Shown: in pieces, positions 14,194 through 58,688 of the stretch | Position numbering within the stretch: the first letter of the stretch is position 1 | Layout of the letters: the number at the start of each line of letters is the position of its first letter | Virus record (IMG/VR): IMGVR_UViG_3300015615_000629 | Coordinates: 368,711 to 432,710 of that record | Length of the DNA stretch: 64,000 nt | Source: a virus | Lineage: Duplodnaviria; Heunggongvirae; Uroviricota; Caudoviricetes | Strand: one strand, 5' to 3' | Notes under the pieces: generated by a model | Databases searched by the model: none | Told to the model about the DNA's origin: nothing | Seen by the model: only the letters and a program-made list of their open reading frames with translations | Made by a program: the position numbers and the translations under genes

Positions 14194-14462
14194 TTCAGGA
14201 TATATCTAACGTTTCTGGGCGTATATTTGGTGAATTCTGCTATTTTGTTAACAGGAAGACCGGAATCATTTAATGATTTGACATGGTGTCGTCTATCATT
14301 TATTCTATTCGGTTCACCGATTTCTCTTATTATACGATATATCTCACCAATAGAAACTCCTGTTTGGCGTGCTATTTCTCGCACCGACAGGCTAGAATCA
14401 TGGTAATATAGATTTAAAACATCTGTTCTTGATTCTTGGATTACAAATTCTTTGAAGTCCAT
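14190..14462 (-). CDS. tandem HTH protein with capsid-targeting-like N-terminus
   Basis: Start MDFKEFVIQE; LSVREIARQTGVSIGEIYRII and LPVNKIAEFTKYTPRNVRYIL. Confidence 0.75.
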   Translation of the reverse strand: MDFKEFVIQESRTDVLNLYYHDSSLSVREIARQTGVSIGEIYRIIREIGEPNRINDRRHHVKSLNDSGLPVNKIAEFTKYTPRNVRYILK

Positions 14463-14526
14463 GTTGTATTTAAACAAAAAAGGCTGGAATATTCCAGCCT
14501 TTTTTGTGACTACTTGTTTTTTATCT

Positions 14527-15117
14527 CTATTCCGGTTGTCCCATCGCACCAGGAGCAAATCCTAGTTGTCCTGGCCCTGGCTCTGCCAAACCATCATTTG
14601 GATTGGTTGGAGCAATTAAAGCATCTTCTTTAACTGTGGTAAAACCATCCCAGAACTTCTGATTCATATCAGAATTTGTCATCGAATAGACGCTATTGAA
14701 CCAATCTTGTTCCTCTTTCTTCATCTTCTTCATGTTTTTCTTCATCTTTTTCATTTTCTTCATGAAGGGAGTAAGAGTTTCGCTATCTTCTTCGTCATCT
14801 TCGGGTTCTTCTTCACCCTTATCTACATCAGTGACTTCTTCATCGTCGTCATCGTCATCATCTTCTTCGTCATCCATTTCTGGCTTTTCATCTTCGGGAG
14901 CCGCGTCGTCAACAGGCGGCTTCTTCATCATTGCACCTGCTTCAACGTCCATTTTCTTCTTCATTTTCTTGGCTTCATCGAGTTCACTCCCTGCTTCAGG
15001 TTCGGTTCCAAGAACAGTTCCAATTGGGGGAGCAACTGCATTAACTTGTGACAAACCAAGTGTGAACGTACCACCAAGCGACTCGTTCAGCATTTGCCAT
15101 TGTTTGAATGTGATCAT
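14527..15117 (-). CDS. low-complexity acidic/basic protein, prohead-core-like
   Basis: MITFKQWQMLNE start, D/E tract between KKM repeats, AAGAGGT SD. Confidence 0.6.
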   Translation of the reverse strand: MITFKQWQMLNESLGGTFTLGLSQVNAVAPPIGTVLGTEPEAGSELDEAKKMKKKMDVEAGAMMKKPPVDDAAPEDEKPEMDDEEDDDDDDDEEVTDVDKGEEEPEDDEEDSETLTPFMKKMKKMKKNMKKMKKEEQDWFNSVYSMTNSDMNQKFWDGFTTVKEDALIAPTNPNDGLAEPGPGQLGFAPGAMGQPE

Positions 15118-21358: not shown

Positions 21359-21399
21359 CAGCCTAGCCGGGCCTCGTTGGCCCGGTTGGGCTGTTTTTT
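21359..21399 (+). terminator. intrinsic terminator
   Basis: 15 bp GC-rich stem CAGCCTAGCCGGGCC/GGCCCGGTTGGGCTG plus T6. Confidence 0.85.
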
Positions 21400-21413: not shown

Positions 21414-21566
21414 ATGAAACGCAAAGTCGCCAGCAAACCAATCAAAAAAAAGGTCAAGCGGGCAGACTCGCTATTGGACCTTCACCGCAAGGGCAAACTT
21501 GGGATGTCTAAGCGAGCAACCAAAGCATTCTTCAATGAATTTTTTGGGTGCGATCCTATTCCATGA
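21414..21566 (+). CDS. small basic protein (50 aa)
   Basis: Hand translation MKRKVASKPIKKKVKRADSLLDLHRKGKLGMSKRATKAFFNEFFGCDPIP; GGAG SD; ATGA-coupled. Confidence 0.55.
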   Translation: MKRKVASKPIKKKVKRADSLLDLHRKGKLGMSKRATKAFFNEFFGCDPIP

Positions 21567-22063
21567 ATAACATAAAAACCCTGTGGACAAAAGGGCGATT
21601 ATACGCTTTCCATGAAGTAGAAAGCCATAGCAGGACAATACTTTATTGTAGCGGTCCATGTTTTGTAGAATTTCCCAAGATACATTTTATTTTAGATACT
21701 ATCGAACATGAACTGTATATCTGTGCAGAATCCGAAGGAGACTTTTATACTTTACTCCTTTCTAATGTTTGTTCCACTTGCGTTTGTTTGGGGCATGAAA
21801 TTCATTCCGCAATGGATTTTTTGTTTACTGGAAAAAACATACCGGCTCTATTTGAATTTGCAATAAATTCCTTTTGGCAGACAAGTTTCGATGGGGTCGC
21901 CTATCTTTCTGAATCTCAAATCATTTCGTTTGGAGAAAGCCTGCGAAAAAAGAAAATAGAGTTGGGAGAAAAAATTGATAATTGGCTGATGGACATATTG
22001 AAAGAGAAAGCCAATCTGTACCTACATTCTCAGAAATCCGTCAGCCAGACAGGGAACTATTGA
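21563..22063 (+). CDS. prokaryotic E2 family D-like protein
   Basis: FVEFPKIHF, LYI, LSNV...VCLG, FW.TSF. Confidence 0.5.
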   Translation: MNNIKTLWTKGRLYAFHEVESHSRTILYCSGPCFVEFPKIHFILDTIEHELYICAESEGDFYTLLLSNVCSTCVCLGHEIHSAMDFLFTGKNIPALFEFAINSFWQTSFDGVAYLSESQIISFGESLRKKKIELGEKIDNWLMDILKEKANLYLHSQKSVSQTGNY

Positions 22064-22123: not shown

Positions 22124-22909
22124 ATGACAACCAATCTTTTAATCATTGATCCACAATATGATTTCTGCGATCAAGAAGGTTCCTTGTATGTTACAGGTGC
22201 GGCTGCTGATTGCGGCCGTATCGAGTTGCTTATTGCCAACAATATGGCCAACATCAATGATATTCTTGTGACAATGGACGCACATCCAGACTTCCATATC
22301 GGCCACCCAATTTGGTTTAAAAACTCTAGGGGAGAACACCCTAATCCTTTTTCCCAAATTCGCTTAGATGGCACTGCTTTTATTGATCAAAACGATACAG
22401 AATGGCAAGTAACTTGTGAGCATACACATGACTATACTGTTAATTACCTTAAAATAGTCAAGGAACACACTGTCTGGCCTTATCATTGTGTAGATGGCAC
22501 GATTGGAAGCTCATTAAGTATTAATGATGGGCTCCAAGTTTGGGCTAAAACTCAAATGGCTGTTCCTGTCCTCTTGCGAAAAGGCCAAAGCCCTTTTACA
22601 GAGTGTTATTCCGCTATTAAAGACGTTACAGGTCGCCTTACGGATATTTCAGAGACTATCCTAACATCAATTTCTAAAGCTGATAAAACAATTGTTTGCG
22701 GTGAGGCTTCTAGCCATTGTGTTGCCGCAACAGTAAGAGATATTTTAAGGACTTCGCCAGAGTTTGCTAAGAAATTGATTATTCTCTCTAATTGCATGTC
22801 TCACGTTACTGGATTTAGGGCGGTAGCGGAAAATTTCTTTAATCAAATGCGGGAAGCAAATGTCCAAGTCTCAACTACTGATGAAATCAGCGGGAATTTG
22901 CGTAGTTGA
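22124..22909 (+). CDS. pncA: nicotinamidase (isochorismatase-like cysteine hydrolase)
   Basis: IIDPQYDF, TMDAH, WPYHC, LRKG, GEASSHCV: Asp/Lys/Cys triad and metal ligands. Confidence 0.9.
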   Translation: MTTNLLIIDPQYDFCDQEGSLYVTGAAADCGRIELLIANNMANINDILVTMDAHPDFHIGHPIWFKNSRGEHPNPFSQIRLDGTAFIDQNDTEWQVTCEHTHDYTVNYLKIVKEHTVWPYHCVDGTIGSSLSINDGLQVWAKTQMAVPVLLRKGQSPFTECYSAIKDVTGRLTDISETILTSISKADKTIVCGEASSHCVAATVRDILRTSPEFAKKLIILSNCMSHVTGFRAVAENFFNQMREANVQVSTTDEISGNLRS

Positions 22910-23078
22910 CCCATACAAGCAAGAAGATGCTTGGTTTGTTTGCCTTACGATAAAAATCGACGGAGCAATTGGTACACTTTATTGGGCTTCCGTTATGGAA
23001 GATAAAAAATCTGCCGTTAAATTCGGCAGAAAATGTGCTAAACAACTTAGACTTAAAGTAGTTGGGAAATTGAAATGA
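22860..23078 (+). CDS. hypothetical protein
   Basis: ATGA-coupled to pncB; start uncertain. Confidence 0.45.
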   Translation: MSKSQLLMKSAGICVVDPYKQEDAWFVCLTIKIDGAIGTLYWASVMEDKKSAVKFGRKCAKQLRLKVVGKLK

Positions 23079-24229
23079 AATCGTTTCTTGATCAAGACTT
23101 ATACAAGTTCACGATGGGCCAAATCGCCTCTCAGAGCCACGCTGATGTACAATATAACTTCGTAAATCGCGACCAAAATAACAAATTTATTCAAGACTTT
23201 CTTCATGTTTTTGAAGAAAAAGTACAGCAACTTGGCGACGTTCACCTAACTCCAGAGGAAAAAGACTACCTTATAAGCCTCAGATTGTTTAATGAAAATT
23301 ATCTCAAGTTTCTTCAAAATTTCAGATATAATCCGAATCAACTCGACATCAGAATTGTTGATGAACAGCTAAGGTTGCGAATTGAAGGCCCTTGGTCTGA
23401 AACTATCTATTGGGAAGTGCCTTTGATGGCACTAATCAGCGAAACTTATTTTGAAATCGTTGATAAGAATTGGAAATGGGATCGAACCGATTATAAAAAC
23501 AGATTGATCGACAAAGCCCAACTCCTAAAAGGCGTCAGATTTGCTGAATTTGGAACAAGACGACGCAGATCGTTTGATACCCAAGATTTGGCCGTAGAAG
23601 TAATGTCACATTATCCTAATTTCGCAGGTACTAGTAACGTATATTTGGCGAAAAAATATAATGTAAACTGTATTGGGACTGTAGCCCATGAATTTGTAAT
23701 GGCTCAGTCCATGTTTTCAAATTATGAATTCAAGGGCAAACCAAACCCAATGGTTCATAGAAATTCAATGGATCGTTGGATTTCTCAATATCATGGCAAA
23801 CTAGGCATCGCTCTTACCGACACCTATACCACCAAATCCTTTCTTAAGTCATTCGATTCATTTTACGCTAGATTGTTCGATGGCGTAAGGCAGGACAGCG
23901 GCGACCCATTTGAATACGGCGAGATGATTATTCGCCATTATAAATCGCTTGGTATCAATCCTCTCTATAAAGTAATTGTTTTCAGCGACTCCTTGGACCC
24001 AGAAAAGGCTGTTGCTCTGAATGATAGGTTCTCTGATAGAATCAACTGTATGTTTGCGATTGGGACTAATTTGACAAATGACTTTCCTGGCAGCCCTGCT
24101 TTGAAAATCGTTATCAAATTGTTCATGTTCAATGGCCAACCTGTCGTAAAAGTTTCCGACGAACCAAGTAAGGCATCTGGCGATCCTGATGCTCTCAAAA
24201 TGATTAAGAGGCTCCACAATGTCGAATAA
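23075..24229 (+). CDS. pncB: nicotinate phosphoribosyltransferase
   Basis: LDQDLYKFTM, EFGTRRR, GTSNV, GTVAHEF, LTDTY, GVRQDSGDP, FSDSL, FAIGTNLTND, KVSDEPSK. Confidence 0.95.
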   Translation: MKSFLDQDLYKFTMGQIASQSHADVQYNFVNRDQNNKFIQDFLHVFEEKVQQLGDVHLTPEEKDYLISLRLFNENYLKFLQNFRYNPNQLDIRIVDEQLRLRIEGPWSETIYWEVPLMALISETYFEIVDKNWKWDRTDYKNRLIDKAQLLKGVRFAEFGTRRRRSFDTQDLAVEVMSHYPNFAGTSNVYLAKKYNVNCIGTVAHEFVMAQSMFSNYEFKGKPNPMVHRNSMDRWISQYHGKLGIALTDTYTTKSFLKSFDSFYARLFDGVRQDSGDPFEYGEMIIRHYKSLGINPLYKVIVFSDSLDPEKAVALNDRFSDRINCMFAIGTNLTNDFPGSPALKIVIKLFMFNGQPVVKVSDEPSKASGDPDALKMIKRLHNVE

Positions 24230-24668
24230 AAAAGATTATCCTAAGCCGGCTTTAACGGTCGATATTGTTTGTTTTTCGTCTACCGATCACGATCTTTCAC
24301 GACACCATTCAAAAGTTCTTTTAATTAAGCGTAAAAACGAGCCCTTTAAGGATTGTTGGGCTTTGCCGGGCGGTTATGTAAATGAAGGGGAAACAAGCCT
24401 AGAAGCCGCCATCCGTGAATTATACGAAGAAACAAAACTTGTTATTAGCCAAAATTATGGCTTAACGGGTGTTTACGACAAGCCCGGCAGAGACCCACGT
24501 GGTTGGGTAGTTTCTGTCGCTTATTTTACCGAGATACACGATTTAAATACCGCTCGTGCTGGCGACGATGCTGCGGAAGTTGGAATCTTCGATGTTGACA
24601 ATTTACCGGAAATGGCGTTCGACCATGCTGACATCATCGACGATACTTTTGATAGGTTTGCAACATGA
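24219..24668 (+). CDS. Nudix hydrolase (ADP-ribose pyrophosphatase/NrtR-N-like)
   Basis: ALPGGYVNEGETSLEAAIRELYEET Nudix box; TVDIV, GRDPRGW, AGDDA. Confidence 0.9.
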   Translation: MSNKKDYPKPALTVDIVCFSSTDHDLSRHHSKVLLIKRKNEPFKDCWALPGGYVNEGETSLEAAIRELYEETKLVISQNYGLTGVYDKPGRDPRGWVVSVAYFTEIHDLNTARAGDDAAEVGIFDVDNLPEMAFDHADIIDDTFDRFAT

Positions 24669-24901
24669 AACTAAGATTGTGCAAGTTTTCTCGTCGTAAG
24701 CTCAATGAAAGCGAGCAAGGCCAGCAACTTTTACCGCTTGTTGACCAAGCCGTTGTCATGATTAACGAAATGGGTGCGGCCCATTGCGACATCAAACTCG
24801 GCTACGTCGAACTAGATGGCGAAGGCGAAGTTGTCGATTCCGAAGAGGAATGTTTGGTTCCTGAAATCATCATCCGTGTAAGAAAAGCGAGAGATGCATA
24901 A
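24665..24901 (+). CDS. hypothetical protein
   Basis: Coupled overlaps at both ends. Confidence 0.55.
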   Translation: MKLRLCKFSRRKLNESEQGQQLLPLVDQAVVMINEMGAAHCDIKLGYVELDGEGEVVDSEEECLVPEIIIRVRKARDA

Positions 24902-25632
24902 TGGGCGGCAACATTGCTGTAACAATTCGTCGTGAAGATGGCCGTGAACATCGGATGTGCCGATGGACTAACCCAATTCCTCACACCTTTAAGAATATCC
25001 ATTTCCTAAACGGAAACGAGGAATACCTAGACAGATATATCAAAACATGGGATGATTTTGTAGAAGATTACCGCCTCCACAAGGAAGATGGCGAATTTGA
25101 GCATAACATGACTAGTGTGTATGCTCCATATCCGTTCTTGGCTCCTTCTGAATACGGAATAATTGTTGTCGATTACCAGAAAAAGGTAATCATTTCTTGC
25201 AATCACTATACTAGTTTGGGGTATATTGATGGTGTAAATTACCTTATTGAATTACCAGATGATCCGCCCTATACCGAAGCATTCAAGATTCCTACACCTG
25301 ACGAAGAAGGTGATTTTGCAGTATGCCAAAATTTGGCACATTTTATATCAGAAGACAGAATTAAAAGCGTCATAAGTTGGGATAATGAAGTTAAAGAAAA
25401 ACTGCCACTTGATTTTTTCATTAACACGCCTCGTCGAGAACAGGGAGAAGTAACACGAGAACTAAGATTTGAACTAGATTTAAAGCCATTTACTTTATTT
25501 GATTTTAACAGAGACACACCAGAAATCTTCGCTAAGGTCAAAGAAAAAGTCCTAGAATTAGGCTTTAAATTGACTCCAGAAGAAGAAGAAATTTGGGAAA
25601 AAGAGATTAAAGGCAGGGAAGAAGATGAGTAA
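24901..25632 (+). CDS. hypothetical protein
   Basis: 243 aa coupled ORF. Confidence 0.65.
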   Translation: MGGNIAVTIRREDGREHRMCRWTNPIPHTFKNIHFLNGNEEYLDRYIKTWDDFVEDYRLHKEDGEFEHNMTSVYAPYPFLAPSEYGIIVVDYQKKVIISCNHYTSLGYIDGVNYLIELPDDPPYTEAFKIPTPDEEGDFAVCQNLAHFISEDRIKSVISWDNEVKEKLPLDFFINTPRREQGEVTRELRFELDLKPFTLFDFNRDTPEIFAKVKEKVLELGFKLTPEEEEIWEKEIKGREEDE

Positions 25633-26164
25633 ATGCTTTTTGGTTGTTTATGGCGAATGTGCCGACCTTCCTCATGATGACTGGAATTTTATTCCAAAAC
25701 CATCAAAATACTGCGTTATTTCAGCATGGCCAGATAAAGCAGCGGCAGATAAGGATTGTGAACAAAAAGCCACCTCAATTACTTACCACAATGGAAGTTC
25801 CTATAGGTTAAGCACGGATGTTTGGACTCATAGTGGTAGCGGTACGTTTTACTGCGTAATTGAAGTTCCATCGCCGGCTGTGCATATCAAGGAAAAAGAA
25901 ATACCTTACGCCCCCAAGAAAGTTGAATTACGTGGTGCGTTTGTTTGGGATTGTGACGATTGTGGCCGTGAAAACTTTTGTACCGGCCCGCCTGTCATCC
26001 AAGAAGAAATTGACGAAATAATTGAAGAGTATGCCGAGGTCGAGGACTTACATGGATTCCATTTCGCCGAGATGCCCGAAACAGTAACTTGTAAATATTG
26101 TGGCGAAATTTTTGAGACTCAAAACCCGACAAAAACCGAACTAGACGAAGATGACGAGGAATAA
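25625..26164 (+). CDS. zinc-binding hypothetical protein
   Basis: WDCDDCG...CKYCG. Confidence 0.6.
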   Translation: MSKCFLVVYGECADLPHDDWNFIPKPSKYCVISAWPDKAAADKDCEQKATSITYHNGSSYRLSTDVWTHSGSGTFYCVIEVPSPAVHIKEKEIPYAPKKVELRGAFVWDCDDCGRENFCTGPPVIQEEIDEIIEEYAEVEDLHGFHFAEMPETVTCKYCGEIFETQNPTKTELDEDDEE

Positions 26165-27841
26165 ATGAACATTTCCCTGGCTCAAATCAATACAACTCCA
26201 CGGGATTTTCAAGGAAATCTCGATAAAATCTTTGCTGCTATTGCACAAGCCGCCAAAGACCAAAGCCGCATTGTCGTATTTCCCGAACTAACCATCCCTG
26301 GATACCTAACCAGAGATATGGTTTATAGCCGAGACTACGTTAGAACCTGTCTCGAAAATCTCCAACGTGTTGTAAACGTATCCAGCAAATATCCTAATCT
26401 TTACATCGTTCTTGGATATATTGATACAAATCGAACCGGTGTAGGCAAGCCATACCAAAATATGGCAGCCGTTATCAATAACGGCGTTGTTGTCGCCACC
26501 TATGCAAAACAATTGTTGCCCTTTTACGATGTTTTTGATGAGGCCCGTTATTTCGAGCCTGGAAATTCTCCCGCTATCGTTGAAATCGATGGCGTAAAAT
26601 GGGGAATTACCATCTGTGAAGACCTTTGGAACGACAAAGGCAGCGACGATTATAATTACAAAAAGAACCCGCTCCGAGCCTACCGTAAACTCGGTATCAA
26701 AAATATCATTTCCTTAAATAGTTCGCCTTTTGTTCGTGGAAAGCCACGTAAGAGAATCGATCTCTTCTCCAAGAGCGAACTTGATACTCTAGTTTATGTT
26801 AATCAAATTGGCGGACAAGATGAACTTGTTTTCGACGGAAATAGTTTCATCTTAAAAGCCAACGAAGGCCACGGCTTTTTCGAGCCAGATATGCAAGAAG
26901 GGGTTTTTACAGCAACCCCCCAAAAGATGGGGCTTAATATCAATTTAACGGCAAGTTCTGCCGAGAACGAACTTGCTACTATCTCTAAGGTTCTGGATAT
27001 CGGCATTAGAGACTATGTAAGGAAATCTGGATTTACCGATGTGGTTGTGGCTAGTTCGGGCGGTATTGACAGTGCCATCGTTATTGCGAAAGCCTGTGAC
27101 GCTCTAGGGGCCGAACACGTTCACGGCATCAGGATGCCAAGTATCTACAGCAGCAAAGGCTCTGTAGACGATGCTTTGTTGCTACACCAAAACTTGGGGT
27201 GTCATGATTACTTGCACCCTATTGCTCACGAAGATTTGATTAAGGATTTTGCCAAATCCTTTAGGATTGTTGGAGATTACAACAAGGTTGCTGATGAGAA
27301 CATCCAAGCACGACTTAGAGGTAATGCTTTGATGTTTTTCTCAAATGCTTTGGGGGCATTGCCGTTAACGACTGGTAACAAAACGGAAATGGCCGTAGGT
27401 TACTTTACCATTTATGGTGATTCCTGTGGGGGGTTTGCTCCCATTAGCGACCTTTACAAGACAGAAGTATATGATTTGGCACGTTACTTGAATCACAACA
27501 GGGAGATTATCCCTAATGAGATCGTCAATAAAGCCCCTTCCGCCGAGCTAAGGCCAGATCAGACGGACGAATCTAGTTTGTTGCCTTATTCGATTCTTGA
27601 CAAAATTGTTAAAGAATATGTTGAGGAATACATTGGTTCGTTCGATAATTTTGCCAAAAAATATCCTAAATTGAAGACATGGGCAAATACCGAAAAAGCC
27701 CCCACAGAATACCGCAGAATCATTAAGTTGATTGATTCTGCCGAATACAAACGTCGCCAAGCCGCTCCAGGCATCAAACTTAGCCAAGTGGCTTTCGGAA
27801 CGGGACGCAGATTGCCAATCGTCAAAGGCGTATTGCTATGA
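26165..27841 (+). CDS. nadE: glutamine-dependent NAD+ synthetase
   Basis: Nitrilase domain (LAQIN, VFPEL, K..LP.YDVFDEARYF, ICEDLW) plus synthetase domain (SGGIDS, ENIQARLRG, TTGNKTE, PSAEL, EYKRRQA). Confidence 0.95.
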   Translation: MNISLAQINTTPRDFQGNLDKIFAAIAQAAKDQSRIVVFPELTIPGYLTRDMVYSRDYVRTCLENLQRVVNVSSKYPNLYIVLGYIDTNRTGVGKPYQNMAAVINNGVVVATYAKQLLPFYDVFDEARYFEPGNSPAIVEIDGVKWGITICEDLWNDKGSDDYNYKKNPLRAYRKLGIKNIISLNSSPFVRGKPRKRIDLFSKSELDTLVYVNQIGGQDELVFDGNSFILKANEGHGFFEPDMQEGVFTATPQKMGLNINLTASSAENELATISKVLDIGIRDYVRKSGFTDVVVASSGGIDSAIVIAKACDALGAEHVHGIRMPSIYSSKGSVDDALLLHQNLGCHDYLHPIAHEDLIKDFAKSFRIVGDYNKVADENIQARLRGNALMFFSNALGALPLTTGNKTEMAVGYFTIYGDSCGGFAPISDLYKTEVYDLARYLNHNREIIPNEIVNKAPSAELRPDQTDESSLLPYSILDKIVKEYVEEYIGSFDNFAKKYPKLKTWANTEKAPTEYRRIIKLIDSAEYKRRQAAPGIKLSQVAFGTGRRLPIVKGVLL

Positions 27842-28143
27842 ATTATGAGCAATTAATGGAAGAATGGCATGAAGATGTGAAATATCATTCTTCTTACCAC
27901 CAGATATGCAAGCATGAAAACCATAAGAAACTACTTGATGTAGGCAAAGATTTATTACCTTATCTATTTGAATGCCTAGAAGCGGATAAATATATTCATC
28001 AATGCTTTATTTTGCTTCCACAATTAACGGGTTGGTCGCCGGAACATAAGTCGTTGGGTGTTGGAACTTGGGTTGCTATAGATGTTCCCCAAACTCGCCT
28101 TAATTGGTTGGAATGGGGAAGACAGCATGGATACATCCAATAA
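27838..28143 (+). CDS. hypothetical protein
   Basis: ATGA-coupled to nadE. Confidence 0.6.
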   Translation: MNYEQLMEEWHEDVKYHSSYHQICKHENHKKLLDVGKDLLPYLFECLEADKYIHQCFILLPQLTGWSPEHKSLGVGTWVAIDVPQTRLNWLEWGRQHGYIQ

Positions 28144-28390
28144 CCCATACGAAGCCCCGAATTTTTATGATCTCCCTAAGTTTCCCGCCTATGATTTAAT
28201 TCTAAATTTTGGCATGATTTCATGTGTGCTCATTTCTGTTATTTCTGTCTTTATCCTTACAGAAATTGGTTTGCCGCTCTGTTTTAGACATATTTTATTT
28301 TATGTGTGGATTATATCTTCCGTTGTAGGTCTAGTTTCGGCTGTGTTTGTCATTTTTAAGTCTTCTATTGGATTGTTTAAAAATGGATAA
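28127..28390 (+). CDS. membrane protein with NPYEAP motif
   Basis: MDTSNNPYEAPNF followed by two TM helices. Confidence 0.65.
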   Translation: MDTSNNPYEAPNFYDLPKFPAYDLILNFGMISCVLISVISVFILTEIGLPLCFRHILFYVWIISSVVGLVSAVFVIFKSSIGLFKNG

Positions 28391-28595
28391 TCCCTACGAA
28401 GCCCCAAATTTCAATGATACTCCCAAACTAAATTTTACTCCTTTTTACTATTTAGCACATATTTTTGTTTGTCTTCTTGCAATTGCGTTTCTCTTATATC
28501 TGGATATTGCTTTAGAAGTCATCATGCTGGGTTTGGCAATTACTTGGGTTATTCAAGTTTCGTGTCTTGTTTTCGCTTTATTAGATGATAAATGA
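28383..28595 (+). CDS. membrane protein with NPYEAP motif (paralog)
   Basis: MDNPYEAPNF followed by two TM helices. Confidence 0.65.
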   Translation: MDNPYEAPNFNDTPKLNFTPFYYLAHIFVCLLAIAFLLYLDIALEVIMLGLAITWVIQVSCLVFALLDDK

Positions 28596-28605
28596 AAGGT
28601 GGTTG

Positions 28606-29178
28606 ATGAAAGTTTGTCTCTACGGCGGTGCGTTTGACCCTGTAACTAATGGGCATCTAGAAATTGCCACATTGGCTTCAAAATATTGCGATGAAGTATG
28701 GGCGATCCCTGCTTACGATCACCACTTCAAAAGCAACATGTCAGATTTTGGCACCCGATTCAAACTCTCAAAAATCGGTTTTTCTTCCTTGCCATTCGTC
28801 AAAGTTGAAGCCCTTCAAGACAACGGTTCAACCTATCGGCTAATGAATGTCCTTTATCGCCGATTCCCCGATATTGATTTTCGCTTTGTTATTGGACAAG
28901 ACAATGCAGATACGATACAATCCTGGGATCACCATATGGATTTATTGAAAACCACAAAATTCCTTGTCATCCATCGTGTCGGAATGCCAAAGCAAGAAAA
29001 TGCTTGGTATCTAACAGAACCACATATCTATGTGCAAGAATCTGGAATAAATTCTGAGGTAAGTTCAAGATTGGTGCGAGGTTTAATATCGACTGAACCT
29101 CACAAAGCGGCCGATTTAGTTCCAACACCCGTTTTTGAATACATTCAAGCGAATAAATTGTATACAATACGTTCCTGA
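28606..29178 (+). CDS. nadD: nicotinate-nucleotide adenylyltransferase
   Basis: YGGAFDPVTNGHL, IGQDN, VSSRLVR, VPTPVFEYI...LY. Confidence 0.9.
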   Translation: MKVCLYGGAFDPVTNGHLEIATLASKYCDEVWAIPAYDHHFKSNMSDFGTRFKLSKIGFSSLPFVKVEALQDNGSTYRLMNVLYRRFPDIDFRFVIGQDNADTIQSWDHHMDLLKTTKFLVIHRVGMPKQENAWYLTEPHIYVQESGINSEVSSRLVRGLISTEPHKAADLVPTPVFEYIQANKLYTIRS

Positions 29179-29196: not shown

Positions 29197-29391
29197 ATGT
29201 CAAGAGAAGCGTTCAGTGACTTTTTAAGAGATGTTCGTAGTCGTCTTTCGGAAGAAATTAAAAACGAAGACGACTACGGCCCAGAAGAAGTCGAATTATT
29301 CCGCCAACTTTTAGATTTGGCTTCCTTTACACATGGAACAATTGATGGAAAGAAACACCGAAATAGAAATAAGAACGTTTCCACCCCGTAA
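29197..29391 (+). CDS. hypothetical protein
   Basis: GAAGGA SD. Confidence 0.5.
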   Translation: MSREAFSDFLRDVRSRLSEEIKNEDDYGPEEVELFRQLLDLASFTHGTIDGKKHRNRNKNVSTP

Positions 29392-29827
29392 ACGAACAAT
29401 TTTGGTTAACTGGACAAACAACTGGACAAACAAAGACGTTCAATCTTATTGTGTTGGTTTTCCTCAAACGCATTTCCTCTATCTAAATAGAGGCCGCCTT
29501 AGAAACTATCTTTATCTTTTCTTTGAAAAAGATAAAGAAATCTTCTTTCCTTTTCTTCCAAACACAATTTTGGGTTGGGTTTGTGTTGGCTGTGTTGGCA
29601 CCATAGAACAGGCTTTGGATTCCTTTTGGAATATTCCCTTTGGAAATTCTCTCCTTGATGTAGAGGAAAGGACTTTTTTTCTAAATGATATCCGCTCGCA
29701 AAAGATTAATATGCGTAGTCTAGACGAAGAAATGAAGAGATACCCGAAATGGCGGCATCATTTTGGGAGCGATTTTGAAGAAAATGCTACTTTTGCACTT
29801 GATGCCATAAAAAAGCATATAAAATGA
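29345..29827 (+). CDS. prokaryotic E2 family D-like protein
   Basis: P.RKRTI, VGFPQTHF, LYLFF, LPNT..GWVCVG, FWNIPF. Confidence 0.55.
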   Translation: MERNTEIEIRTFPPRKRTILVNWTNNWTNKDVQSYCVGFPQTHFLYLNRGRLRNYLYLFFEKDKEIFFPFLPNTILGWVCVGCVGTIEQALDSFWNIPFGNSLLDVEERTFFLNDIRSQKINMRSLDEEMKRYPKWRHHFGSDFEENATFALDAIKKHIK

Positions 29828-30090
29828 TCGCCTTCAATAAACACATAGAAAAGCCAAAAGAAATCGTTGCCAAGAGCAATAATTGGAATTGGTTGTTGTG
29901 TGGCGTAATTATCATTTTGTCAATCAATTCTATAAGAATGATGTCGGCGATGAACCGAGGGAATGCCGCCTTGGAACAAGCAATTCAAAATCAATATAGG
30001 TTGCTTGTGAAATACGAAGGCTGGCAGTGGAAAGGTAACACGGCAATCCCAGGGCCAGCAGATGAACATAAAAACCTTCCCAGCACGTAA
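29824..30090 (+). CDS. single-TM hypothetical protein
   Basis: WLLCGVIIILSI segment. Confidence 0.55.
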   Translation: MIAFNKHIEKPKEIVAKSNNWNWLLCGVIIILSINSIRMMSAMNRGNAALEQAIQNQYRLLVKYEGWQWKGNTAIPGPADEHKNLPST

Positions 30091-30541
30091 AAGAACCATC
30101 ACCTCTTTTTATTTAAAAGAAATTAAGAATCGTGGCAATAACGGTGTCTTTATACAAGAATATTTTTACGAGAAAGGTTCTTTTTATATAGATTTTCCAA
30201 AATCGCACTTTATCAAAGAAACAGGTGACTTGTATCTATTTTTTGAAATAGACAATGATATTTTTGTTCCTGTTATGTCCAATGTATTCGCGGGATACGT
30301 TTGTCTGCCCGTTACAGATTCGCTTGAAGAAGCGATAGACCTATTTTGGAAGACCCCTTTTGATGGTAAAGCATATTTGGATACTCGCGAAAGATTTGAC
30401 TTCGCAGATCAACTCCACCAGGGAAAAGTGGAATACATTAGCATTAATGAATGCAGGGAAACATGTTGGGATAAAATGTCCTCAGAGCATGTCACAAATT
30501 TTGAATATATTGTAGCCACCCTAAGAAATAAGATAAAATGA
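30062..30541 (+). CDS. prokaryotic E2 family D-like protein
   Basis: PARKRTI, IDFPKSHF, LYLFF, MSNV.AGYVCLP, FWKTPF. Confidence 0.55.
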   Translation: MNIKTFPARKRTITSFYLKEIKNRGNNGVFIQEYFYEKGSFYIDFPKSHFIKETGDLYLFFEIDNDIFVPVMSNVFAGYVCLPVTDSLEEAIDLFWKTPFDGKAYLDTRERFDFADQLHQGKVEYISINECRETCWDKMSSEHVTNFEYIVATLRNKIK

Positions 30542-31053: not shown

Positions 31054-32697
31054 TTAGTTATTTAGGTCCAATCGCCAACGTTTTTTGCCACAATCCCATA
31101 TTCTTGCTAGGCCATTTTGAGCTGCCCACTCTCGTTCTGTAAGACCTGGAGGACAGTTAGTCAAAGCCTTTCTTTGGGATTGCTTTGAATGTCTTCTAGT
31201 TGGTTTATGAAAATTTACATAACAATAATCTTCACGAAGTTCTTCCTCTAATACAAAACCCAACTTGTCGTATATTGTACCGAGACTCCACCTGTTATCA
31301 CTCCAAGATATTATGGAATTGTATCCGTTTTGAATAGCCCATTCTTTACAATATTTTAATAGTTTACTGGCTCCCCCAACGACTTGTACACCATTTTTAA
31401 AAAACAACCTGTCCAGGGTTAATTTTTTGTTTCTTGGATGTCTTCCTAAAGACATACCCCCTATTATCTCGTTTTTATAGACTAAACAATAGAAAACGAG
31501 TCCTAAGTTATTCGAACCTTGAAGATGATATTTCTCACAAAAAATGTTAAAATCCTTTCTAGTAGATTCTACTATAGAACATTTTCTTGCAAATATTCTA
31601 TTACTAAATATTTTTAGATTAGATAGTAGAATATTTTTACATTGTTCTTGTCTTTTTTTCCATTCATCTTCGAATATGGTTATTAGTTGAATGCCTGATT
31701 CTTTGCAAATGCGATATTTTTCATAGTGATACTTTCTGTCTCTTGGCTCTAACGATAATTCATTGTGCCAAAACAACCCACAATATTCTATTCCCAAATT
31801 TAAATTTTCGTCAAACATATCGAGTTGTTTTGTTTTTAATATCTTATAACTTGATTTGAAATTAAATCCGTGAGAATTCAACCAATCCTGAATTTCTATT
31901 TGTGTTCTGCCATATTTTTGATTCTCTTTTAGACATAGAGTGCTTGGCACCCCATATTTTCTCAAACACGTCTCTTCGTATCTTTTTTTAAATTCAGCCG
32001 ACTGTGCGTAGTTTTCGACTCCATACCTTTCTAAATTGGTATTCTTAAATTTGGTTATAACGTCTTTGTTTTGATGCGGATGCTCAAATCCATATTTTTC
32101 TAGACATGTTTCTTTTCTTTGCTGCCAATACTCATCTGTCTGGCTATAGTTTTTTTTCCCATACCTTTCCAGGCATGTTTCATCTCTTTTGTGTAAAACT
32201 TTCTTGTTTTGCATTGGGCTCTCGTTGCCATATTTTTCAAGAGATGTTTTTTTATATTTTTCTAAAAAGTCTTCCGCTTGGGCATAATTTTTAACTCCAT
32301 ACTTTTCCGAACAAGTTTTGCGCTGTTTTTCTTTGATTTCTTCACATTGTAGTGGTGATTCGACTCCATACTGCTCTAAAAGTTTTTTCTTACGTTTATT
32401 TTTGAAGTCTTCGCTGGAATAATATTCTTCTGTACCGTATTTTTCTAAATTTGTAGATTTTTGCTTCTCTTTAAAAGACGTAGAAGTGAAGATGCATTTC
32501 GACCCAACAGTTTTTAGATTGACATCTTCTTGTTTGGCTTTTGTGCAATTTTTTGAACCGCAACTGTCTTTATCTATAATCTTGTTTAGGCGTGGTATAC
32601 TTTTCTTTACCCTATAAAATTCTTCGCCGCAATAGTCACATTTAAGCAAAACTTTTGTGCGAATTGTACATTGATCATAATTTTCTTGAAGTATCAT
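31054..32697 (-). mobile_element. free-standing homing-endonuclease-like gene with (T)xL[EK][KR]YG repeats
   Basis: Zn ribbon CDYC, about 9 repeats of TxLEKYG, Vsr/DUF559-like QLDMF...GIEYCGLFWH...ITIFEDEW, C-terminal GGASKLL...SWSD.RWS...DCG. Confidence 0.75.
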
Positions 32698-53453: not shown

Positions 53454-53936
53454 CTAAATCTCAGTGGTTGTCAAATTCCTGAGTTTTTCGAGGATGGCAG
53501 AGTCGTGTAGGAGGTACTGAAGTCCAAAATGCTTCGGTTCTGTCTGTATTAGTTGGTCTAGACTAACCCAATTAAAGCCCGATGTTTCCCATCTTGAATT
53601 TTCATCGGGGCTTGGGTTAAACTTCATAGGAATTATCCCTAGAAAATTAGTATAAGTAAAATTCGTGGCGTGGAATTCCTTTAAGACAGATAGTTGCATC
53701 TGTCCGTGATAACCAGTTTCTTCTAAAAATTCCCTTTTGGCACCTGCTATCGGCGTTTCTGATCCGTCTAGTTTGCCACCAATAATACCATAGGTGTTTG
53801 GTTCATTTACATGTGGCGATCTAAGAGAGATAAGAAATTCCTTATCTTTCTTGGCAAATGCCAAAATACCGGCAGCTTCGGTTCCCCAAAACTGCTCTAG
53901 TTTAAGTAAATATAACCAATCTTCAAATCCACGCAT
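53454..53936 (-). CDS. Nudix hydrolase with capsid-targeting-like N-terminus
   Basis: GGKLDGSETPIAGAKREFLEETG; MRGFEDWL...LE start. Confidence 0.85.
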   Translation of the reverse strand: MRGFEDWLYLLKLEQFWGTEAAGILAFAKKDKEFLISLRSPHVNEPNTYGIIGGKLDGSETPIAGAKREFLEETGYHGQMQLSVLKEFHATNFTYTNFLGIIPMKFNPSPDENSRWETSGFNWVSLDQLIQTEPKHFGLQYLLHDSAILEKLRNLTTTEI

Positions 53937-56595: not shown

Positions 56596-57315
56596 TCAAA
56601 AATTATTTATCATAGCGTACAAATCGTCTAAATTCTTAATTGTATCGTTATGTGGAGCAACCATCAAAATATTATTGGGATTCATGATAAAGTAAGTTAA
56701 TCCTCCCAAGTCACCGGATTCTTTTCTTATTTTCCTAGATTCTGTAAAGACCATTGCGTCGTAACCGCTCTTTTTTATCTCATCTACAAATTGTGGCTTG
56801 TCTAAAAGCCACCAAATATCTTCCATTGCCAATTTAGTCTTTTTTGTTCCGTTATAAGAATTGACTAATTGTAGTCCTATTTTTTTTGCGGTTAATGGAA
56901 TATTGTTAACATTTAACGGATTCTCTACTTTGCAATAAGCGTCATAAACCTTATAATCTCTGCCATATTTCGATCTATTGCTTCCAAAATAATTAGCGAT
57001 TGGCTTGGAGTTCGTCATAAAGACTCCAAGATTTTCTACGTCATACATTGCACCTAAAAATCCCAAACTTCTTTTTCCTGGCATGGGTTTTAATTCTTTT
57101 AAATCCATATTTGGAGAGCCATGATGCAATAGGATTGGATTAGAAGTGCCGAGTTTCTTAGCATAGCCTTCTCTATTAATTTCTTTAACCCAATTAAGGA
57201 CATTTTCTCGTCCTGCTGGGCCGATTTGTTTTAATCTATCGTTAAATTCTTGTTGAGAGTTTATTCCCTGCAGTTCTTGAGGTAACATAGACTCTAGCCA
57301 CAACTTAAACTCCAT
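56596..57315 (-). CDS. ADP-ribosyltransferase-like protein (ART-PolyVal-like) with capsid-targeting-like N-terminus
   Basis: LHHGS, GVFMTNS..IANYFG, VYDAYCKVENPL, GYDAMVF; MEFKLWLE start. Confidence 0.65.
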   Translation of the reverse strand: MEFKLWLESMLPQELQGINSQQEFNDRLKQIGPAGRENVLNWVKEINREGYAKKLGTSNPILLHHGSPNMDLKELKPMPGKRSLGFLGAMYDVENLGVFMTNSKPIANYFGSNRSKYGRDYKVYDAYCKVENPLNVNNIPLTAKKIGLQLVNSYNGTKKTKLAMEDIWWLLDKPQFVDEIKKSGYDAMVFTESRKIRKESGDLGGLTYFIMNPNNILMVAPHNDTIKNLDDLYAMINNF

Positions 57316-57946
57316 ATAAGCCTTTTCCCTTCCAAAGCATTTTATCTATCTTATGTGGGTGCTTCTTCATGAAGTCATCTGTGGTTTTCATTACATCTGG
57401 CGGCTTTACGCCTGGATTAGATTTTGCATAAAATTGCATTAAAAGTTGTCTTTTGTTCTTGTCCTCTTCTGGCCCAAAATCCCTTGGCCAGACTTTACCT
57501 TTTCTGAATACGTCTATCATTTTATTTCCAGTTACAACAAATTCTATTCCTTGATTATCCAAAGAAAACCAATCTCCTGGCTCTGCTTGCATGGGGGCCT
57601 CTTGAGGATATCTGGATTCCGAATCGTCTTGTCTTTTCTCGAAACCACGCTCATCTCCTACTTTAATCAACGCACCATAAGTCTTTATCTCATCGTCAGT
57701 TACATCATGAAACGTCTTGTTTAAAAGTCTTGCCACATGAGAAATTATGGCATTTAAGGCTCTTTGGAGGCTTCTTTTGTCGGTAGCAAAGACGGCCGGT
57801 TCTAATAAGTCTGCATACTCATCCCCATAAGCATCTTGTGTAAAACCACCCACATCAGGAACTAGTCCAATTTGCTTAATGTTTTTGGCGGCGACTTTGG
57901 TTGTGCCGTGCCAAAGGGACGTTTCCATAAAATTCCTGAAGTCCAT
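57305..57946 (-). CDS. ADP-ribosyltransferase-like protein with capsid-targeting-like N-terminus
   Basis: LWHGTT....NIKQIGLVP, AVFATD; MDFRNFME start. Confidence 0.6.
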   Translation of the reverse strand: MDFRNFMETSLWHGTTKVAAKNIKQIGLVPDVGGFTQDAYGDEYADLLEPAVFATDKRSLQRALNAIISHVARLLNKTFHDVTDDEIKTYGALIKVGDERGFEKRQDDSESRYPQEAPMQAEPGDWFSLDNQGIEFVVTGNKMIDVFRKGKVWPRDFGPEEDKNKRQLLMQFYAKSNPGVKPPDVMKTTDDFMKKHPHKIDKMLWKGKGLYGV

Positions 57947-57962
57947 ACAATATCTAAGCTTG

Positions 57963-58688
57963 ATGTTCCACATTAGAAAACCGTTAATATTGATAGGAAG
58001 TGTTTATAACGAGCAATCTACTAAATGGTTGGCGTTACAACAAGAATTTCTTAAAACAACCGCATCAAAATACGAATTCGTAGTTTATTTTAACGGCACC
58101 AAGCCTCCAGAAAAGGTTGACATCTTAGGGATTAATCTACAAAGTAAAGATAGCAGAGCGGAACACCTGTTGGGATTTAACAAAATATTGGACTATTTCA
58201 AAGAAGAAAAACGCTTTTCTCATTGCCTAATTTTAGACAGTGACGCCTTTCCCATTAAAAATGAATGGGATAAAATACTCCTAAAGAAAATAGAGCCTTT
58301 TGGAATGGCCTGTGTTATTAGATTTGAGAATCTAGACACATTCCCTCATCCTTGTGTCTTTTTTACCGATAGAAAATCTGTCGATAATGTAAACCCAAGG
58401 ATGTCGGAACAGAAAAACCTACTTGGCAGGAAGTTCAAGGAATTTAATCTAGACATTAAACAGCCATTCTTTCCGCTACTTAAGACAAACACCTATTCCC
58501 CACATCCTATTATTAGCACAATCTATTACAATTTGTTCTATCATCATGGTTTCGGTTCTAGGAATTTTTACTGCCGATCTGTCCATGTAGACAATTATTA
58601 TGAAACAAAAAATAGTGTCAAGTCCCTTTATGATGAACTAATTGAAAATCCAAAATTGTATATCAAAAGATTAAATGAAAACGCATAA
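57963..58688 (+). CDS. GT-A-like glycosyltransferase
   Basis: LILDSDAFP (DxD), PHPC, YHHGFGSR. Confidence 0.6.
   Translation: MFHIRKPLILIGSVYNEQSTKWLALQQEFLKTTASKYEFVVYFNGTKPPEKVDILGINLQSKDSRAEHLLGFNKILDYFKEEKRFSHCLILDSDAFPIKNEWDKILLKKIEPFGMACVIRFENLDTFPHPCVFFTDRKSVDNVNPRMSEQKNLLGRKFKEFNLDIKQPFFPLLKTNTYSPHPIISTIYYNLFYHHGFGSRNFYCRSVHVDNYYETKNSVKSLYDELIENPKLYIKRLNENA

Follow-up and report, generated by a model that had tools for sequence, protein, structure and literature searches.

A predicted deamidating NAD+ salvage module, running from nicotinamide to NAD+, in a complete 572-kb myovirus-like megaphage

We found that an array of genes in an uncultivated megaphage very probably encodes a deamidating salvage module for nicotinamide adenine dinucleotide (NAD+), in which a nicotinamidase (PncA) stands at the head of the Preiss-Handler enzymes PncB, NadD and NadE. 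The module spans positions 22124-29178 of the window, by which we mean the whole 64-kb stretch of DNA that was analysed, namely bases 368,711-432,710 of the 572,167-bp virus record IMGVR_UViG_3300015615_000629. Open reading frame (ORF) calls placed its five co-oriented + strand enzyme genes at exactly the coordinates given in the original prediction for this DNA. The overlap coupling that had been described for them was likewise recovered, as the array junctions overlap or abut by 4, 11, 4, 1, 8, 0, 4 and 11 nt, and the catalytic residues of all five enzymes are in place, with the exception of one glycine in the Nudix box. The phage genome is one contig of 572,167 bp with direct terminal repeats and was judged complete. 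Because this complete record carries genes for a tail sheath, a sheath stabiliser and a baseplate hub, as well as a homing endonuclease, in the same 64-kb window as the NAD+ array, the source is an uncultivated myovirus-like megaphage; its tail sheath shows only distant kinship to that of any deposited phage.

The first gene of the module (22124-22909, +) encodes a 261-residue protein that we identify as a predicted nicotinamidase of a long form, given the combined evidence of a family alignment, a structural model and the matches of that model to known enzymes. Relative to canonical PncA, the protein carries an insert of ~60 residues, and a search of 5.8 billion proteins placed it in a family of metagenomic proteins of 250-290 residues with identities of at most 40%. 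Within an alignment of 23 members, the triad (D9, K153 and C199) and the metal site (D52, H54 and H121) are invariant, and the part that aligns with M. tuberculosis PncA covers the WP-HC motif and the Cys. An AlphaFold (AF2) model built on the family alignment reached a mean predicted local distance difference test score (pLDDT) of 96.9. Upon comparing this model with the PDB by Foldseek, we obtained nicotinamidases for all of the top 11 matches, among them yeast Pnc1 and the enzymes of A. baumannii, Leishmania, Drosophila, Pyrococcus and M. tuberculosis.

The assignments of PncB and NadE follow from scores above curated cut-offs together with full agreement of the key motifs. PncB (23075-24229, +; 384 residues) is a nicotinate phosphoribosyltransferase of type I, similar to those of E. 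coli and Pseudomonas, which scored 414.5 bits against NF003704 (cut-off 379) and 383 bits against TIGR01514 (cut-off 269.55) and contains both Pfam domains (PF17767 and PF04095). It aligned over its full length with PDB entry 1yir, with conservation of the GT-AHE histidine; this residue, H205, aligns to 1yir and is invariant across 14 viral homologues. NadE (26165-27841, +; 558 residues) is a glutamine-dependent NAD+ synthetase that combines a CN-hydrolase glutaminase domain with an ATP-pyrophosphatase synthetase domain. Its score against NF010588 was 542.7 bits (equivalog cut-off 479), Pfam recognised CN_hydrolase in front of NAD_synthase, and in an alignment with the glutamine-dependent enzyme 5kha the FPEL motif, the Lys, the Cys of iCED and the SGGIDS motif all found their counterparts.

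The gene at the distal end of the module (28585-29178, +) encodes a 197-residue NadD-like nicotinate/nicotinamide mononucleotide adenylyltransferase, which matched B. subtilis NadD (1kam) over its full length with an expectation value (E) of 1.6e-14. It carries the motifs GGAFDPVTNGH, in which the first signature reads TNGH and not HxGH, and, near the C terminus, SSRLVR (SS-R). The family call appears sound on these grounds, and the enzyme would act on nicotinate mononucleotide (NaMN) or nicotinamide mononucleotide (NMN). Between PncB and NadE lies the gene for a stand-alone Nudix hydrolase (24219-24668, +; 149 residues; PF00293, 68 bits) of the NrtR/NadM-Nudix clade, without a winged-helix domain. 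When compared with the consensus GX5EX7REUXEEXGU, its Nudix box, GGYVNEGETSLEAAIRELYEETKL, keeps every Glu and Arg position and has Lys in place of the second Gly. The best matches were NrtR, the Nudix halves of NadM-Nudix enzymes, and 2fml. NadM-fused Nudix relatives hydrolyse adenosine diphosphate ribose (ADP-ribose) to adenosine monophosphate (AMP) and ribose-5-phosphate, and by analogy this is most likely the reaction of the enzyme in the array. Two more Nudix genes occur in the genome, one in the window at 53454-53936 (-; 160 residues) and one at C1:253,750-253,905 (~154 residues); judged by their similarity to the Nudix of the array, both fall outside the NrtR/NadM clade.

From established knowledge of the enzyme families and from the family and structure tests above, we infer every enzymatic activity of the pathway. 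PncA would deamidate nicotinamide to nicotinate, which PncB would join to host-made phosphoribosyl pyrophosphate (PRPP), with the use of adenosine triphosphate (ATP), to give NaMN. NadD would then adenylate NaMN to nicotinate adenine dinucleotide (NaAD), and NadE would amidate NaAD to NAD+ at the expense of glutamine and ATP. This is the order of steps that the original prediction had assigned to the Preiss-Handler route, and it is supported gene by gene. The Nudix enzyme would remove ADP-ribose, which is likewise released when NAD+ is cleaved, by converting it into AMP and ribose-5-phosphate. The latter could supply host PRPP synthesis, and we regard such feeding of the host PRPP synthetase (Prs) as a speculation; that the NAD pool may be hidden in the form of deamidated intermediates was a further suggestion of the original prediction. 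The net effect would be that NAD+ is kept up in the infected cell, whichever consumer draws on it (the ligase of the phage, perhaps an ADP-ribosyltransferase, or NADase defences of the host). The module could hence serve general NAD+ supply, recovery from host NADase defences, or both.

Since we found no Prs or Adps, no Nampt and no PnuC in the genome, the array is the only predicted NAD+ route of this phage. The absence of a prs gene, previously noted for the window, extends to the whole 572-kb genome, as PRPP synthetase/Adps profiles (PF13793 and PF14572) gave no match genome-wide, whereas controls matched in 14 of 14 genomes. NAMPT_N (PF18127) and PnuC (PF04973) were absent from the genome as well, and so were genes for SIR2 and Macro domains. 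A single gene of the NAPRTase family was found in the genome, which is of the PncB type and scores only 69.8 bits against the Nampt family of PHROG. We considered a second gene with a CTP_transf_like domain as a possible NadM or NadR and rejected it, as it encodes a dihydrofolate reductase (DHFR) fused to an adenylyltransferase resembling HldE domain II, beside thymidylate synthase. This 332-residue fusion, with DHFR at its N terminus and the HldE-domain-II-like part at its C terminus (C1:211,801-212,799; L004 1432-2430, -), is an unusual combination and sits between genes for thymidylate synthase and an adenine DNA methyltransferase.

As to enzymes that would draw on the product, the genome encodes an NAD+-dependent DNA ligase (LigA) in an open frame of 685 residues, with the adenylation domain at C1:147,096-147,833 (L006), which is a clear phage-encoded NAD+ consumer. 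A second consumer is possible: a 239-residue protein encoded 27 kb downstream of the array (window 56596-57315, -) scored 31.1 bits against the ART-PolyVal profile, at the border of its cut-off of 31.2, and may be a phage ADP-ribosyltransferase. The ORF that overlaps this gene on its upstream side (57305-57973) had no Pfam match. That the array feeds phage proteins of this kind, as was originally proposed, is plausible only.

The co-occurrence survey suggested along with the original prediction showed that the module recurs in other phages of the IMG/VR database. Neighbours were counted within 10 kb of an anchor gene, and because some of the IMG/VR PncB loci are prophage calls on isolate genomes that may include host flank, the counts are approximate. 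The long PncA was present in at least 236 IMG/VR contigs, and among the best 79 loci PncB was a neighbour in 18, NadE in 13, NadD in 8 and the Nudix in 7; a single locus, L013, holds all five, with NrtR replacing the bare Nudix. Relatives of PncB occurred in at least 538 contigs, and for the best 80 of these loci (with PncA of either type counted) we obtained PncA in 51, NadE in 38, NadD in 11 and the Nudix clade in 4, while PncA, NadE and NadD co-occurred in 7 loci and one locus, distinct from L013, had the full set of five. Searches for related loci that started from the single sequence reached less far than alignments, yielding none with PncB and one locus with NadE. Since PncA pairs with PncB so often, the survey points to nicotinamide as the substrate that these phages would care about, a preference that fits the products of NADases and the by-product of ADP-ribosyltransferases alike. 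By the same measure, the Nudix, present in so few of the PncB loci, is not a conserved part of the route.

Individual loci illustrate how the module varies. L096 shows PncA-PncB-NadE in the order of the window, without the filler ORFs and with a NadE of 50% identity, and L089, from a 332-kb IMG/VR phage, shows PncB-NadE-Nudix followed by a canonical short PncA. We examined the 199-residue ORF that follows PncA in L089 as a divergent NadD and rejected it, as it had no similarity. The canonical PncA replaces the long type in L089 and in many PncB-anchored loci, and the use of two unrelated nicotinamidase types in one slot is good comparative evidence that the module would need nicotinamidase activity. 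The closest relatives of NadE, PncB and PncA are found in other huge phages at 41-52% identity, for example 52% for NadE in LR756511.1 and 48-50% in L089 and L096. Three deposited huge phages (LR756511.1, LR756500.1 and LR756501.1) encode homologues of PncB and NadE, and the first two also a long PncA. The NAD+ genes are adjacent in some of the deposited huge phages and tens of kilobases apart in others.

Several observations weigh against the reading of the array as a complete salvage module. PncA stays below curated cut-offs (Pfam, 24.7 versus 27 bits; NCBIfam, 46 versus 174 bits), and NadD does so for TIGR00482 (99.7 versus 112.45 bits). TNGH, as found in NadD, is a motif characteristic of phosphopantetheine adenylyltransferases (PPATs), and PPATs are among the weaker PDB matches of the protein, which cover the N-terminal part only. 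The Nudix clade includes NrtR proteins, which are non-catalytic ADP-ribose sensors, and the equivalent of the Nudix in L013 bears a DNA-binding winged-helix domain and is thus a full NrtR. Seven unrelated ORFs (72, 78, 243, 179, 101, 102 and 82 residues) interrupt the array, which the original prediction had left unmentioned. In LR756511.1, the nearest relative among deposited phages, the genes for NadE, PncA and PncB are scattered across 60 kb, and therefore clustering is not required. Finally, the long PncA family also occurs beside a set of VWA-like, PP2C and protein-kinase genes without NAD+ genes. At three loci (L002 10001-14296, L063 9863-13918 and L013 5221-9665), the long PncA lies directly upstream of a conserved trio, whether or not NAD+ genes are in the vicinity. 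The trio resembles the TerY-phosphorylation triad and comprises a Ser/Thr protein kinase, a PP2C phosphatase and a protein of ~225-290 residues, for which L002 gave a weak VWA match. This hints at a second role of the long nicotinamidase family; no such trio was seen adjoining the PncA of the window.

The salvage module may be a dedicated counter-defence pathway, a further member of the phage NAD+ reconstitution pathways (NARPs) that rebuilds NAD+ from both products of NADase cleavage, an idea that overlaps with the salvage function without excluding it and to which we give somewhat less than even weight. In this version, directed against Thoeris, SIR2, SEFIR, DSR and other such NADases, PncA would take up the nicotinamide and the Nudix would make ribose-5-phosphate for the Prs of the host. 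Consistent with this, the entry enzyme is a nicotinamidase, PncA is a much more frequent companion of viral PncB than NadD is (51 versus 11 of 80 loci), a Nudix of the ADP-ribose clade is placed between PncB and NadE, and the genome lacks all of the routes of NARP1, NARP2 and NARP3, which themselves set the precedent that NAD+ rebuilding defeats NADase defences. We further noted that L089 encodes a protein with a NADAR domain (14328-14825, +; 163 bits) 1.5 kb downstream of its NAD+ cluster, a neighbour that would suit such a function. However, the cost is considerable, with four enzymes, three ATP-consuming steps, PRPP and one glutamine compared to two steps in NARP1 and NARP2, and because the deamidating route is so long and costly it would be a slow answer to acute depletion. 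The presence of the Nudix in only 4 of the 80 PncB loci indicates that ADP-ribose recycling is not conserved, and the possible ADP-ribosyltransferase of the phage would release nicotinamide too. As NARP2 also increases NAD+ when no defence system is present (Osterman et al. 2024, bioRxiv 10.1101/2024.02.11.579819), general supply explains such genes equally well. An experiment on the deamidating route as counter-defence was not found in the literature searched, which also contained no paper in which phage PncA, PncB, NadD or NadE was challenged with a defence system. The bolder proposal, that the array is a working fourth NAD+ reconstitution pathway in which the Nudix disposes of or recycles ADP-ribose, that it allows replication despite NAD+-depleting defences, and that the long PncA is its under-annotated entry enzyme, we hold to be on balance doubtful.

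A narrower function, in which PncB, NadD and NadE alone provide nicotinate salvage and the PncA-like protein and the Nudix act on other substrates, seems unlikely to us. The PncA-like protein would then hydrolyse another amide, and the Nudix would act on a signalling nucleotide, on NAD-capped RNA or on an immune signal derived from ADP-ribose. The sub-threshold scores of PncA and the many viral contigs in which the long type neighbours VWA-like, PP2C and kinase genes are compatible with this, as is the isochorismatase fold, which hosts varied amidases that appear in the Foldseek ranking from rank 12 on. Moreover, the substrate range of a Nudix is unreadable from sequence, and the genome carries the two additional Nudix genes described above. 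Against it stand the invariance of the Asp/His/His metal site and triad of nicotinamidases throughout the PncA family, the 11 nicotinamidases that head its structural matches, and the canonical PncA that takes its place in L089 and in many loci anchored on PncB. Of the 79 long-PncA loci, 18 have PncB within 10 kb, compared with only 15 of 50,697 deposited phage records that contain any PncB, and the closest named relatives of the Nudix, NrtR and NadM-Nudix, are tied to ADP-ribose and NAD+ metabolism. That the cluster is not phage DNA at all, being misassembled host sequence or a very recent unselected pickup, is hard to credit: PncB and NadE do resemble proteobacterial PDB enzymes, and some IMG/VR PncB loci from prophage calls may be host flank, but the cluster sits on one contig with terminal repeats that was judged complete, its guanine-plus-cytosine (G+C) content of 0.40-0.42 is within the range of the window, its flanks consist of phage-type genes and a phage-specific paralog family, its best relatives reside in huge phages at 41-52% identity and are not near-identical bacterial genes, and a megablast search of the 7-kb region against the deposited phage collection returned no match.

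Placed beside published work, the phage-encoded salvage module is a fuller example of a kind of cluster already described in jumbo phages. In the survey of Li et al. (Microbiome 2024, PMC11662467), a full set of genes for salvage or for the Preiss-Handler pathway was present in 174 of 668 jumbo phages from the gut, with pncB, nadD and nadE clustered in, for example, Kuafu_71. The authors used the term NAD-jumbo phages for those with a genome >200 kb in which at least one pathway of NAD+ salvage or Preiss-Handler type has all its genes, found the largest phages all within this group, noted NAD+-dependent ligase among the NAD+ consumers that its members encode, and mentioned phage pncA in their discussion. 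The phage studied here falls within that definition, having 572,167 bp with terminal repeats and pncB, nadD and nadE, and it shares with those clusters the pncB-nadD-nadE clustering and the NAD+-dependent ligase elsewhere in the genome. It differs in its additional long-form nicotinamidase and ADP-ribose-type Nudix, by which the route would start from nicotinamide, and in its source, which is not known as gut, whereas the published phages are gut phages; both studies are bioinformatic only. A 2026 phage genome paper (PMC13384950) proposed that pncB/nadD/nadE may counter NAD+ depletion, and NARP3, composed of PnuC and NadR, has meanwhile been described (Sci Adv 2026, PMC13464706). With these clusters, with NARP3 and with the counter-defence idea all in print, the original claim to a new third route has been superseded. 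The deamidating route is unmentioned in Osterman et al. (bioRxiv 10.1101/2024.02.11.579819), and Iyer et al. 2022 make no mention of nicotinamidase, PncA, NadD, NadE or Preiss-Handler.

The contrast with NARP1 and NARP2 drawn in the original prediction stands, as the parts of both are absent from the genome. NARP1 (Adps and Namat) also uses the products of NAD+ cleavage, but it does so by pyrophosphorylating ADP-ribose and coupling nicotinamide straight onto it, whereas the most that would happen to ADP-ribose here is breakdown to ribose-5-phosphate; a Prs-like Adps next to a Nampt-like Namat was not found genome-wide. NARP2 of Vibrio phage KVP40 (Nampt and Nmnat-Nudix) is closer, since it too starts from nicotinamide and host PRPP and has its adenylyltransferase linked to a Nudix of the same clade. 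It proceeds in two amidated steps via NMN, in contrast to the four steps via nicotinate, NaMN and NaAD that we propose here, the last of which is an amidation that uses glutamine, and its Nampt (PF18127 and PF04095, with Nmnat) has no counterpart in a genome that lacks NAMPT_N. NARP3 is likewise a phage-encoded restoration of NAD+, yet it imports nicotinamide riboside, and the present genome has no PnuC (PF04973) and, as the only other CTP_transf_like gene, the DHFR fusion. The bacterial pyridine nucleotide cycle and the NrtR regulon comprise these four enzyme families too, acting in an identical order of reactions, along with a Nudix of the same clade; here the array is viral and shared with unrelated ORFs, and the Nudix has retained its catalytic glutamates but has no DNA-binding domain. 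Partial sets are found in Agrobacterium phage Atu_ph07, with a glutamine-dependent NadE, PncB and an ADP-ribose pyrophosphatase but ~85 kb between NadE and PncB, and in Bacillus phage G, where a stretch of 7 kb contains NadE, a Nudix and a NadD-like gene. The genes of these two phages are only 25-43% identical to those of the window, and a PncA of the long family was absent from both by tblastn.

The transcriptional arrangement originally proposed was less well supported. A placement behind one early promoter found no support: between the PncA start and a terminator-like hairpin upstream of it (21359-21393), the + strand had no sigma-70-like site of at least 9/12, and the region contained 37 promoter-like sites compared to 42.6 expected from shuffles. 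Early timing is unsupported as well, since a sequence does not show when genes are expressed. The + strand hairpin (15 pairs, 11 of them G-C, followed by a T run) is the probable upstream edge of a co-directional array that reaches 30541, in that an unbroken run of co-directional ORFs extends from just after the hairpin to that position, where a convergent gene starts. Within 22124-29178, the + strand contained only weak terminator-like hairpins of 5-8 pairs with 3-4 G-C, several of which are expected by chance inside genes, and a sequence resembling a ribosome-binding site lies directly before the PncA ATG. The array may be co-transcribed.

As the seven interleaved ORFs had no family match and were absent from all of the ~160 related viral loci in which we sought them, we treat them as lineage-specific insertions and not as pathway steps. 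All are on the + strand. The 72-residue ORF (22860-23078) separates PncA from PncB, and an acidic ORF of 78 residues (24665-24901) follows the Nudix. Next comes a 243-residue protein (24901-25632) of a phage-borne family with ~30 homologues, which occur in huge-phage contigs away from NAD+ genes and share the invariant residues M1-G2-G3, R10, R18, R21, T23, N24, D91 and E228. Its model (pLDDT 85.7) had no PDB match at E <= 0.001 and no known fold match, and the sole hit among AlphaFold database (AFDB) clusters at E 2e-6 was an uncharacterized protein with a template-modelling (TM) score of 0.29; the protein probably stands outside the NAD+ pathway. The 179-residue protein behind it (25625-26164), with two zinc-ribbon-like C-terminal CxxC pairs, is not kept beside NAD+ genes. 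We considered the 243- and 179-residue ORFs as a missing step (Prs, kinase or transporter) and rejected both on account of the lacking family matches and their absence from the ~160 loci; their Atlas matches were viral hypothetical proteins only. Downstream of NadE lie an ORF of 101 residues (27838-28143) and, before NadD, two small overlapping hydrophobic ORFs of 102 and 82 residues (28082-28595), which each begin with NPYEAPNF and are probably paralogous membrane proteins.

The surroundings of the array are of phage character. Three paralogous + strand ORFs of 160-170 residues (21548-22063, 29333-29827 and 30062-30541) flank it; they share a common FP(K/Q)xHF...LYLFFE-like core, none has a Pfam match, and tblastn located at least 5 further copies in the genome (at ~C1:118.4 kb, 296.7-299.9 kb and 463.9 kb). 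Just past the array, on the opposite strand, a homing or HNH endonuclease of 547 residues is encoded at 31054-32697 (-; phrog_3339, E 3e-101). Among sequencing runs, one aquatic-metagenome DNA run contained a small share (0.09) of the sequence words and no RNA run was listed as containing them, a result that is not informative on habitat or expression.

Bacteria commonly defend themselves by depleting NAD+. Experimental proof exists for three phage routes of NAD+ rebuilding; the deamidating one is so far known only from catalogues of jumbo phage genes. What is new here is the long-form PncA, verified by alignment, model and structural matches, the Nudix that accompanies it, and the survey figures, from which it emerges that viral PncB usually travels with a nicotinamidase and that two unrelated PncA types serve in this position. 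Because the long PncA type falls below the Pfam cut-off, annotation-based censuses probably undercount complete routes from nicotinamide to NAD+ in phages. The locus, whose five enzymes can be identified and have no rival NAD+ route beside them in the genome, is a compact and complete test case and a clean candidate for a fourth route of NAD+ rebuilding, which would not surprise a specialist. If the route indeed defeats NADase defences, it would be a mechanistically distinct, glutamine- and ATP-hungry addition to the NARP set.

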